From Chloroflexota bacterium (GTDB taxonomy: Bacteria; Chloroflexota; Anaerolineae; Caldilineales; Caldilineaceae), in assembly GCA_003451595.1 (NCBI GenBank), contig DMDA01000101.1, positions 67,531 through 131,530 of the forward strand: a stretch of 64,000 nt of DNA. The letters run 5' to 3'. A program made the translations under genes and the position numbers. Under the pieces are notes generated by a model. That model was not told the origin of the DNA. It made no database searches and saw only the letters and a program-made list of their open reading frames with translations. The stretch's first letter is position 1; each line of letters starts with the position of its first letter. Positions 57,415 through 59,958 of this stretch are shown here, one piece after another.

Positions 57415-59958
57415 ATGCCCAAACGCAAACCCACCACCCACCAACCCACCCTCTACCACAAACCCGTGCCCACCATGCCGGAGGGCTACTACTCCTCCGG
57501 CCCCAACCCGAACCTGGGCAAATTCGTCGCCGAGCACGCCAAGCCCTATGACCCGGCTACCGACACGTACAACGTGCCGCCCTTCGACAAGCCGATCACC
57601 ACGACCAAGGCGACGGCGATCTACAACATGCACACCTACTGGTCGAAGAAGCCCCACGACGCCATCCGCCAGTACATCCGCCACTACACCCAGCCGGGCG
57701 ACCTGGTGCTCGACCCCTTCTGCGGCAGCGGCGGCACGGCGCTGGCAGCGCTGATGGAGGGCCGCGCCGCCATCGCCATCGACCTCTCGCCGGCGGCCAC
57801 CTTCATTACCAAGAACTACTGCACGCCGGTGGACGTGGCTGAGCTGGAGCGCGCCTTTGCCGAGCTGGAGGCGAAGGTCAAGCCGGAGATGGAGTGGCTC
57901 TATGAGACGCGCTGCGACCGCTGCGACGGCCGCGCGCTGACGAGCTACACCGTCTATTCGCAGGTCTTTCGCTGTGAGCGCTGCCTGGCGGAGGTTCCGC
58001 TCTTCGACTGTGTGGAGGTGCAAAGCACGACGCTGGCCGGCAAGCCCAAGACGATCAGCGCCTGCCCGCACTGCTACGCCGCCGGCGTGGTCGAGGAGAT
58101 CAGCACGCGCAGCAGCGCCAAGCTGGGCGCCGTGCCCGTGCTGGTGAGCTACGAATGCCAGGAAGGCTGCAAGCCCAAGCGCGGCGAGCGCCGCCACAAT
58201 GACCCCGACGCCAAGAAGCGGCGCTTTTTCGAGGAATACGACCTGGGCAAGCTGGCGGAGATCGAGGCAAAACCGATCCCCTACTGGACGCCGCCGCACC
58301 GCATGATGAACGTCGCATCAGACACCGAACCGTGGGGCGACGAATGGCGACCGGGGCGCAACTTCCGCACGGTGGCGGAGTTGTTCACGAAGCGGAATTT
58401 GTGGGCGCTGGCGTTGTTGGCACATTTCATCCGTCGACTCAACTATAGTAATGGAAACGTGCAAGATCAGCTTCGATTGGCATTCAGCGGGACAATCTTG
58501 AATGTGTCAAGAATGCTCAAACAAAGTGAGCAGTGGGGCGGTGCGCTTCAGATGGGCACCTACTATATGCCGCAGATCAGCCGTGAGTCACCTGTGTTCA
58601 TTGGTTTTGACTACAAGTACCGAGATGTGAAACGGGGACTTGATGCTATTGGTTCGATTATTACAGAACCGAATGTTCTCATCTCCACTCAATCTGCGAC
58701 TGCACTCGGCGAGATCGATTCTGATAGCATCGACTACATATTCACCGACCCGCCCTACGCTGACAAAGTGCAGTATGGTGAGTTGAACTTTATTTGGGAA
58801 GCATGGCTCGACTTGCAGCCTCGCTGGCACGATGCCGAAATCATCGTAAATAAGACACGCGGTCTGTCTGACACCGAATGGGCAAACTCGATGAGTAACG
58901 CTCTGCGCGAGTGTTTCCGAGTATTGAAGCCTAATCGGTGGCTATCACTGTGCTATCACGATACCAGCGAGGGAACATGGGCATTAGTCCAAGATATAAT
59001 GGCTGACATAGGGTTTATTCCTGAAACTATCGGAGATACCCTGTTCATCGATACCGGTCAGAAATCCTACAATCAGTTGATGGCCGACAAAGTCACCAAG
59101 CGCGACCTGGTGATCAACTTCCGCAAGCCGCGCCCCGGCGAGACTGGCGCGGTCGTGCTCACCGGCGACGAGGATGCCGCCGCCTTCGCCGACAAGGCGC
59201 GCGCCATCCTGGTCGAGGCGCTGGAAGCGCACCCCGGCAGCCCCGCCGACCGCCTCTACGACATCCTCGTCTCGCGCATGGTGCGCCGCGGCGAGTTCGA
59301 GCGCCACAACTTCCAGGCGCTGCTCGAATCGGTGGCCGAACCGGTGCGCGAGGCGCTGATGCAGGAACTCTTCACCCCGCGCCCGCCTGATCTCTTTGGC
59401 CAGCACGCGCAGGTGCGCTGGTATCTGCGCGCCACCGCCGACGACCTGGACGACGCCGAACGCACGCGCGAGGAAGCCGCCGCCGCGCGGCTGGAAGCCT
59501 ATATGCGCAGCGCGATCGACTACACTGCGCCCGCCGGCGCCGACGCGGGCGTCCACTACTCCGACCTCTTCGAGCACTACCTGCCCGTCAAGGAAAAGCC
59601 GCGGCGTCTGCTGCAGGAGTGGCTGCCCGAATTCTTCTTCAAGACCGCCGACGGCGCCTGGCGGCCCCCGCTCACCGCCGAGGAGCGGGCGCAGAAGCAG
59701 GCATTGCGCGCCGGCGGCAGCCTGCGCCGCATCAAGCGCTTCGTCCACGCGCTGGAGCAGGGCGTCCCGCCCGCGCCGCGCGACCTGCCCGCGTCGCTCG
59801 CCGACGCCGCCGACTGGATCCGCCAGTGTCGTCGCGCCGGCCTCTATCGCTACGGGCGGGCGATCTACGAACGCGGCGGCTTCGACTTCGCCAACCTCCA
59901 CGCCGAGGCGCAGGCCGAGGTAGAGGAGGATTATCAGATCTGCGTACGGCGGAGCTAA
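57415..59958 (+). CDS. DNA methyltransferase with motif I before motif IV and an intervening Cys4 Zn-ribbon (PglXI-like/COG1743-like rather than canonical PglX)
   Basis: AdoMet motif [15 protein letters not shown] (57712 onward), Cys clusters CDRCDG...CERC...CPHC (about 57913-58077), and catalytic FTDPPY (58741-58758). 847 aa. RBS aggag lies 12 nt before ATG 57415. Confidence 0.75.
   Translation: [847 protein letters not shown]

Follow-up and report, generated by a model that had tools for sequence, protein, structure and literature searches.

A motif-permuted DNA methyltransferase of the PglXI class encoded with BrxL in a BREX-type operon of a Chloroflexota bacterium

The operon and its gene products

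We describe a DNA methyltransferase gene, and the operon that contains it, in a stretch of 64,000 nucleotides from a Chloroflexota bacterium (assembly GCA_003451595.1, contig DMDA01000101.1, positions 67,531 to 131,530 of the forward strand). The whole stretch is called the window, and positions are counted from its first nucleotide. The gene lies at 57415..59958 on the + strand. Open reading frame, Pfam and PADLOC evidence places its product of 847 amino acids in the N6_N4 family of DNA methyltransferases and in the PglXI/BrxXI class, as the putative modification subunit of an operon of the bacteriophage exclusion (BREX) type. BREX is among the commonest of the phage-defence systems, and we know of no settled account of how it stops phage.

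Five other core genes are present on the same strand. The first (43769..45109) encodes a RadC-N-type helix-hairpin-helix (HhH) domain, joined through a disordered linker to a BrxA-like C-terminal half. Within its family the RadC N-terminal HhH domain UPF0758_N is found in 17 of 20 members and Pfam BrxA in eight of the 20, and the model of the protein superimposes on BrxA (7zge) with a Foldseek template-modelling (TM) score of 0.60, normalised to the target. This is followed by a small protein of 179 amino acids (45106..45645, +), a BrxC/PglY-like ATPase of 1436 amino acids that matches Pfam DUF6079 with 35.6 bits (45638..49948, +), and a PglZ protein of 932 amino acids recognised by Pfam (49951..52749, +). 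The last gene, brxL, begins at 62718 and runs off the 3' end of the window at 64000 (+); it matches Pfam BrxL_N and BrxL_ATPase. A complete BrxL is encoded at 15265-17295 of a closely related contig (L001), where the protein has 676 amino acids and scores 560 bits on the PADLOC BrxL model.

We compared these proteins with two reference systems using hhalign, the type-1 references being single sequences and the type-3 references alignments. A canonical type-3 locus is that of Caldicoprobacter oshimai (L063), for which PADLOC calls BrxF, BrxC, PglXI, BrxHII, PglZ and BrxA, in that order, and a type-1 locus is on plasmid p357 of Bacillus mycoides (L086). The ATPase aligns with type-3 BrxC over 1110 columns (E = 6e-28) and with type-1 BrxC over 65 columns (E = 7e-6). 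PglZ is likewise closer to its type-3 (E = 4e-37) than to its type-1 counterpart (E = 3e-9), and its best NCBIfam model is BREX_PglZ_3, although the score lies below the cut-off of that model. The protein of 179 amino acids aligns with type-3 BrxF with a probability of 87% (E = 4e-6), and with type-1 BrxB with E = 0.017. Five of 22 members of its family are matched by PADLOC BrxF and none of the 22 by BrxB, with a faint match to the NCBIfam BrxF model. The family is small and specific to this subtype: searched against 1.84 billion proteins, its profile recovers only 159 cluster representatives. By contrast BrxL aligns with type-1 BrxL with E = 1e-92 and has no counterpart in type 3. The original prediction, made on the window sequence before this analysis, had named two type-1 genes, brxB and brxL, as the partners of the methyltransferase. 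The second identification holds; the first is replaced by a BrxF-like, BrxB-equivalent protein, which stands beside a BrxC and a PglZ that also resemble those of type 3. Taken together, the comparisons favour a description of the operon as a type-3-like core, with BrxL in place of BrxHII and a BrxA-like gene moved to the front.

The PADLOC BREX models give no more than 13 bits for the BrxC-like protein, and no match to the two small proteins, so that routine annotation would probably overlook the system. In each of the 22 homologues with sequence in the region concerned, BrxL of this subtype keeps the Lon-type motif PKEGPSAG and the GGIQxKLxAA lysine. Two type-1 BrxL references, from B. mycoides and Haloarcula plasmids, lack both Lon motifs. 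The BrxL protease may therefore be active in this subtype.

Motif order of the methyltransferase

The reading frame of the methyltransferase has two possible starts, a GTG at 57373 and an ATG at 57415, and ends at 59958. All 23 close homologues begin at the MPK sequence encoded from the ATG, and we therefore take this as the real start and reject the GTG. Residue numbers are counted from the ATG; those counted from the GTG are higher by 14.

The S-adenosylmethionine (AdoMet)-binding block comprises residues 73-112, with motif I (FCGSGG) at 102-107. The catalytic FTDPPY sequence is at 443-448, 341 residues past motif I, with DPPY itself at 445-448. Three CxxC pairs lie between the two motifs, at 167-170, 187-190 and 217-220. 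These positions agree with the original prediction, in which the AdoMet block was placed near residue 100, FTDPPY about 340 residues later and the three cysteine pairs between them. The AdoMet-binding half corresponds to 57631..57780 (+) and is defined by motif, homologue and model evidence. It contains the conserved HTYWSKKPH helix, strand beta-1 with motif I (57718-57735), and strand beta-2 (AIAID) with the invariant D123. Motif IV (58747..58758, +) comes directly after a strand at residues 439-444, on the evidence of motif, alignment and model. No substitution of G104, G106, D445, P446, C187, C190, C217 or C220 occurs in 65 homologues of 28-89% identity, and these motif and cysteine features are therefore not the result of chance.

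The order of the motifs is reversed from that of the beta class, in which DPPY precedes FxGxG. Pfam N6_N4_Mtase (PF01555) matches the protein with 70.6 bits, above the gathering threshold, with the match split into two stretches. Residues 87-141 in the GTG numbering pair with positions 160-214, at the C-terminal end of a profile of 221 positions. Similarly, residues 77-128 align with residues 225-276 of M.RsrI, containing motif I, whereas residues 429-454 align with residues 49-74, containing DPPY. In M.RsrI and in the Pfam profile the two pieces thus stand the other way round, and the methyltransferase has, as had been proposed, a circularly permuted form of the beta-class N6_N4 motif order. 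With the beta-class enzymes, such as M.RsrI (1eg2), M.MboIIA (1g60) and CcrM (6pbd), it shares recognisable motif I and DPPY blocks. Beyond the order of these motifs, the enzyme differs from them in an insert of 300 residues and a C-terminal extension of 270 residues.

Motif IV is DPPY in the clade to which the window enzyme belongs and DPPF in type-3 PglXI. DPPY and DPPF are typical of N6-adenine methyltransferases such as M.RsrI, M.MboIIA and CcrM. On this basis the base modified is most likely adenine, at N6.

Class of the methyltransferase

Among the PADLOC models the best match to the methyltransferase is PglXI (PDLC02541), with 354 bits and E = 4.4e-106. PglXI, or BrxXI, is the methyltransferase of type-3 BREX that Goldfarb and colleagues are said to have described in 2015. 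The genuine PglXI of C. oshimai scores 1365 bits on the same model, so that by this measure the window enzyme would be an outlying member of PglXI or belong to a sister family. The two proteins, both of about 845 amino acids, are 33% identical and collinear over residues 25-573 (BLASTP, E = 2e-93). A BLASTP comparison with the type-1 PglX of B. mycoides, a protein of 1148 amino acids, gave nothing better than motif snippets with E = 0.045. The enzyme is thus not a type-1 PglX, in agreement with the original prediction that it is not a canonical PglX, and the PADLOC match and the alignment with the C. oshimai protein place it in the PglXI/BrxXI class.

The prediction had described the enzyme as PglXI-like or COG1743-like, and only the first of these is borne out. 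The NCBIfam model DUF1156_antiphage matches with 32.8 bits against a cut-off of 1000, over residues 336-543 in the catalytic core, and the Pfam and NCBIfam scans found no DUF1156 N-terminal domain. No DUF499 ATPase or helicase-nuclease partner was found among the neighbours in the window or in the related loci. PADLOC models labelled MTase_II also match the methyltransferase. One of these (PDLC03346) scores 1045 bits on genuine PglXI, and therefore the label does not mark a separate family. A large protein database contains more than 3200 relatives. Identity is 62-89% for the best 120, most of which belong to metagenome-assembled genomes (MAGs) of Chloroflexota.

Conservation of the operon

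When one genome per species was scanned, 593 relatives of the methyltransferase came to light, and 80 of their loci were retrieved. The loci were probed by tblastn with the window proteins and with the type-3 proteins of C. oshimai. Those in which the methyltransferase is 45-78% identical to that of the window, and which have enough flanking sequence, also encode the HhH protein, the 179-amino-acid protein, the BrxC-like ATPase, PglZ and BrxL. Those in which it is 30-35% identical contain a canonical type-3 operon without BrxL. In the tblastn search BrxHII had no match in loci of the window clade, while most type-3 loci were matched.

There are 28 non-redundant loci with at least four of the six core genes, all on one strand, and they are distributed over at least nine phyla (Chloroflexota, Planctomycetota, Bacillota, Thermodesulfobacteriota, Spirochaetota, Acidobacteriota, Pseudomonadota, WOR-3 and Methanothrix / Halobacteria). 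In seven of these loci the operon is compact and free of cargo. In a maximum-likelihood tree of 62 methyltransferases two branches, 1.35 and 1.41 substitutions per site in length and with 100% support in the Shimodaira-Hasegawa-like approximate likelihood-ratio test (SH-aLRT), divide the clade of the window (29 rows) from the type-3 clade (33 rows). Every one of the 21 rows with a BrxL context lies in the first clade, and the type-3 contexts are confined to the second. The tree indicates that the window-clade enzymes are a sister group of type-3 PglXI, rather than nested within it. A recent survey of BREX reports that BrxL is wholly absent from type 3 (PMC12839542). The pairing of this kind of methyltransferase with brxL is unusual, as the original prediction supposed, and the conserved operon shows that it is not peculiar to the window.

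With A, F, C, M, Z and L standing for the genes of the BrxA-like protein, the BrxF-like protein, the ATPase, the methyltransferase, PglZ and BrxL, three operon orders are found: A-F-C-M-Z-L, A-F-M-C-Z-L and A-F-C-Z-M-L, the last being that of the window. The last order is also found in a compact operon without cargo, of the Pelotomaculum type (L015/L017). Most insertions of cargo in the related loci flank the methyltransferase gene. The operon shares with type-1 BREX (brxA-brxB-brxC-pglX-pglZ-brxL, as in the B. mycoides locus) the presence of six genes on one strand with a homologous brxL at the end, and one of the three orders, A-F-C-M-Z-L, mirrors that of type 1. In contrast, the methyltransferase is unrelated to PglX, BrxC and PglZ are distant, the small protein is BrxF-like rather than BrxB, the BrxA-like protein carries the additional RadC-N HhH domain, and BrxL keeps the serine and lysine motif residues of Lon. 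The likeness to type 3 lies in BrxC, PglZ and the BrxF-like protein, each closest to type-3 profiles, whereas the BrxA-like gene stands first here and last in type 3, and none of the loci searched has BrxHII beside the window-type methyltransferase, which is encoded instead with BrxL.

Some of the related loci have features of their own. Two methyltransferase paralogues with different variable modules occur in a single operon of a Chloroflexia MAG (L009 and L011, contig CAWCPR010000012.1), in the order A-F-C-M1-Z-M2-L, which suggests dual specificity in one BREX locus. The methyltransferase frames of a Halobacteria MAG (L047) and a Bacillales MAG (L072) each contain one internal stop, and these may be pseudogenes or sequencing errors. 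The first of these is also a very divergent locus (C-M-Z-L), with a methyltransferase that lies between the clades, 38-41% identical to each. The complete subtype is present in a cultured isolate, Levilinea saccharolytica KIBI-1 (L002/L008, NZ_LGCM01000014.1), together with three cargo inserts: a protein of 423 amino acids, an AAA_21 and DUF4276 pair, and a ThsB-TIR and 8xMP pair.

Architecture and the cysteine-rich module

We generated an AlphaFold2 model of the methyltransferase from 65 sequences, with a mean predicted local distance difference test score (pLDDT) of 82.4 and a predicted TM score (pTM) of 0.68. In the model beta-1 comprises residues 97-100 and beta-2 residues 118-122. The insert extends from about residue 126 to about 420, the strand at 439-444 leads directly into DPPY, and residues 588-846 form a helical, winged-helix-like region. 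The type-3 enzyme BrxXI has been described as having a short N-terminal prelude, a large insert past core strand 2 and three C-terminal helix-turn-helix (HTH)-like domains (Rakesh & Krishnan, NAR 2026, PMC12839542). Its insert contains a four-cysteine zinc finger, with a resemblance to alpha-class enzymes (PMC12839542). The model of the window enzyme matches this layout; the nested-insert zinc-finger architecture is therefore real, yet it has already been published for type-3 BrxXI and is not in itself new. A Foldseek search of the PDB with the full-length model returned generic Rossmann methyltransferases only, the best with E = 1.2e-3 and a TM score of about 0.1 normalised to the query, and no solved structure of the PglXI class was among the hits.

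The window enzyme and type-3 PglXI thus have in common their length, the short N-terminal prelude, the N6_N4 core with motif I before motif IV, the large insert with the same four invariant cysteines, and probably a C-terminal helical region. They differ in five additional invariant cysteines in the window clade, in the DPPY motif, and in the diverged C-terminal 270 amino acids.

The cysteines lie in a conserved beta-rich module of the insert, residues 164-260 (57904..58194, +), defined by their invariance and by the strands of the model. C187, C190, C217 and C220 form the four-cysteine site common to both clades, across all 65 sequences. C167, C170, C199, C248 and C252 are invariant in 41 of 41 members of the window's own clade; at these positions type-3 sequences show H, V, A, V or a gap. 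From this pattern we infer one universal zinc site and a putative second metal site specific to the BrxL clade. The module would then probably bind two metal ions in the BrxL clade and one in type 3.

The C-terminal region, residues 588-846 (59176..59955, +), was delineated from the helices of the model, from hhalign and from its absence in orphan relatives. BLASTP gives no alignment with the corresponding region of type-3 PglXI, whereas hhalign aligns the last 270 or so amino acids over 154 columns with a probability of 92% and E = 6e-7. The two regions thus appear to be remotely homologous. The C-terminal helical region is missing from three relatives in Planctomycetia MAGs (L034, L035 and L039), of 617-653 amino acids and 47% identity, and a search of the surrounding 10 kb found no BREX gene near any of them. 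The only one of the three with annotation (L034, 638 amino acids) has housekeeping neighbours, namely a major facilitator superfamily (MFS) transporter, an alcohol dehydrogenase and GrpB. All three proteins look like orphans derived from the BREX methyltransferase. The absence of the C-terminal region from them is consistent with a role for this region in linking the enzyme to the other BREX components.

A hypervariable module and a natural cassette exchange

Within the clade, column entropy is lowest in the AdoMet-binding half, in residues 161-200 and around DPPY, and highest in residues 341-420. The hypervariable region can be delimited as an alpha/beta module at residues 333-441 (58411..58737, +), which exists as 28 types among 40 sequences and is the putative determinant of target recognition. 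The window enzyme and one homologue (P0001) are 95.4% identical in the backbone and 36.8% in the variable block, whereas for another (P0004) the values are 76% and 68%.

The strongest evidence on this module is the comparison with contig L001 at the level of DNA. The two sequences are about 100% identical across brxC, pglZ, and the first 920 and last 870 nucleotides of the methyltransferase gene. They differ only in a cargo slot, described below, and in a block of about 750 nucleotides at 58340..59089 (+), the sole differing part of the methyltransferase gene. This block was defined by identity in steps of 60 nucleotides, by blastn segments and by the profile of guanine-cytosine (GC) content. 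The block, residues 309-558 of the protein, takes in the variable module, DPPY and the catalytic strands that follow, and its identity to L001 is 28-82% per 60 nucleotides. In both alleles its GC content is about 0.45-0.57, compared with 0.63-0.79 in the flanks. These features point to allelic cassette replacement as a route by which specificity may change.

The original prediction had assigned target recognition to the zinc-ribbon-like region between the motifs. A zinc ribbon does form part of the insert, and on present evidence it is probably not the target reader. Its cysteines are invariant while residues 333-441 are hypervariable and recombining, and therefore the variable module is the likelier reader of sequence. 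The determinant of specificity is thus probably contained in the low-GC block and residues 333-441, and the zinc module is more likely to be a structural or non-specific DNA-binding element.

Searches of the window by blastn, tblastn and for repeats found no silent or duplicated cassettes of the kind used in phase-variable switching. An imperfect inverted repeat (58351-58374 and 59115-59138, 24 nucleotides, 75% complementary), with a 10-nucleotide direct repeat AACTTCCGCA at 58360 and 59115, brackets the exchanged block almost exactly. Within 7.5 kb there are 21 other chance pairs that it does not surpass, and it is probably coincidental.

Cargo genes and the Avs2 neighbour

In the window, the slot that separates the pglZ stop from the ATG of the methyltransferase (52757-57409) is occupied by a giant open reading frame (52893..57335, +), which we identify as Avs2 (PADLOC 1652 bits, NCBIfam 1376 bits). 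Its GC content is 0.516, against about 0.62 for its neighbours, and tblastn with the window proteins found it in none of the 84 related loci. In L001 the slot (4309-9995) contains instead an AAA_15/21 ATPase, a protein of 197 amino acids and an nSTAND3 protein of 1215 amino acids. The DNA outside the slot is 98-99.9% identical; homology breaks seven nucleotides past the pglZ stop and resumes five nucleotides before the ATG of the methyltransferase. The slot looks like a precise hot spot for the exchange of cargo.

Two further insertions separate the methyltransferase gene from brxL. A Phd/YefM-ParE toxin-antitoxin pair identified by Pfam (60063..60624, +) is also present in L001. It is followed by a pair encoding an AAA_21 ATPase and a DUF4435 protein (60728..62697, +; Pfam), similar to the AriA/AriB pair of PARIS, which is found in L001 and is absent from other related loci. 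All three insertions (Avs2, Phd/ParE, the PARIS-like pair) are cargo embedded in the operon. Directly upstream of the operon, at 39937-43736, are genes for an HTH/NB-ARC/TPR protein of 946 amino acids and an ADP-ribosylglycohydrolase. The latter resembles the ADP-ribosylarginine hydrolase Tri1 with 322 bits, below the NCBIfam cut-off.

Discussion

We conclude that the methyltransferase is the modification subunit of a six-gene anti-phage operon of the BREX type, belonging to a distinct subtype, with a probability that we put at about 80%. A fuller statement, for which the balance of the evidence is favourable by a smaller measure, is that the operon is a seventh subtype of BREX. It would combine a type-3-like core and a methyltransferase from a sister group of PglXI with a motor that is a BrxL retaining the Lon motifs, rather than BrxHII. 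In such a subtype the methyltransferase would be a movable module, occupying three positions in the operon, flanked by cargo, and carrying an exchangeable low-GC cassette for specificity.

Several observations weigh against these conclusions. The score of the enzyme on the PglXI model is a quarter of that of genuine PglXI (354 against 1365 bits). The PADLOC BREX models miss the BrxC-like protein, the 179-amino-acid protein and the product of the first gene, so that the BREX label depends on profile-profile comparison, PglZ, BrxL and synteny. In those comparisons the use of single sequences for type 1 and alignments for type 3 inflates the advantage of type 3. The roles of the zinc and variable modules are argued from conservation only, and the exchanged block also holds catalytic motifs, so that it is not a clean exchange of a recognition domain alone. 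Finally, the three Planctomycetia relatives lie outside any BREX context, and the family is not strictly bound to BREX.

The enzyme might be an ordinary type-3 PglXI, in a standard type-3 BREX system of which the helicase gene lies elsewhere or has been lost. Its best HMM (hidden Markov model) is indeed PglXI, its architecture is that of BrxXI, the BrxC, PglZ and BrxF-like proteins are closest to type 3, and 23% of type-3 loci lack BrxHII according to the survey (PMC12839542). However, the long and fully supported branches that split the clade from 33 type-3 PglXI sequences are difficult to reconcile with this, as are the presence of BrxL in 21 rows of the tree and the absence of BrxHII from every locus of the clade. 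The gene order, the five extra invariant cysteines, DPPY in place of DPPF and the diverged C-terminus all differ from type 3, from which BrxL is wholly absent in the same survey (PMC12839542). We consider this explanation improbable.

The position of the gene directly 3' of Avs2, which has an Mrr-like nuclease domain, raised a different question in the original prediction, namely whether the methyltransferase serves the giant open reading frame rather than BREX. It could be a self-protection partner of Avs2, or an independent Type II or orphan enzyme that landed beside BREX in a defence island; the matches to MTase_II models and the orphan relatives in Planctomycetia are in keeping with this. 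But Avs2 is foreign in GC content, is absent from 84 of 84 related loci, and is replaced by other genes in the L001 slot, and therefore the methyltransferase is not its partner. The enzyme is instead kept with the five other core genes in at least nine phyla, including the compact operons free of cargo, and the MTase_II model in question scores very highly on genuine PglXI. These comparisons place the methyltransferase in the BREX-type operon, and make an independent or Avs2-linked origin very unlikely. Least credible of all is a methyltransferase of DUF1156/COG1743 type (the prediction had named COG1743) from the three-gene 'BREX-related' (BR) systems centred on DUF499. The enzymes of those systems share with the window class the nested insert past core strand 2 and three HTH-like domains at the C-terminal end (PMC12839542), and there is the weak match to the core of DUF1156_antiphage. 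That score falls far below the cut-off and covers only part of the protein, the DUF1156 N-terminal domain is missing, and in place of the DUF499 ATPase and helicase-nuclease partners we find PglZ and BrxL.

Returning to the modification subunit of a BREX-type operon, we can suggest how the enzyme might work. The six core products are the RadC-N/BrxA fusion, the BrxF-like protein, the BrxC-like ATPase, PglZ, the methyltransferase and BrxL. The Rossmann fold of the methyltransferase is interrupted past the AdoMet-binding strands by the insert of about 300 residues, before resuming at the DPPY strand. The cysteine-rich, beta-rich module of the insert may be a structural or DNA-clamping element. 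The hypervariable module at 333-441 would read the target motif, and would be exchanged between strains in the low-GC cassette of about 750 nucleotides. The C-terminal helical region of about 270 amino acids probably connects the enzyme with DNA or with the other BREX proteins. If it works as characterised BREX systems do, the methyltransferase would mark a short motif in the DNA of the host, and BrxC, PglZ and BrxL would exclude unmarked phage DNA.

The survey of BREX mentions neither the combination of BrxXI with BrxL nor the RadC-N fusion (PMC12839542), and our search of the literature found no paper naming a seventh BREX type or a new BREX subtype. The genomic context of the methyltransferase thus appears to be new, and as far as we have found, there is no earlier description of this type of operon, of the extra cysteines specific to the clade or of the natural exchange of cassettes.

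The natural swap of a type-3 modification and ATPase core onto a type-1 motor shows that BrxL and BrxHII can stand in for each other as back-ends. With a BrxL that appears to keep the Lon active-site residues, the question whether BREX involves proteolysis is opened to experiment. The PADLOC models miss three of the six proteins, and consequently the subtype is probably under-counted, especially in Chloroflexota, Planctomycetota and Methanothrix. L. saccharolytica KIBI-1 provides a practical organism for methylome work. We know of no structure or motif assignment for the PglXI/DUF1156 class, and the window and L001, which differ in the variable cassette of the methyltransferase, constitute a ready-made experiment for the specificity determinant of the class.

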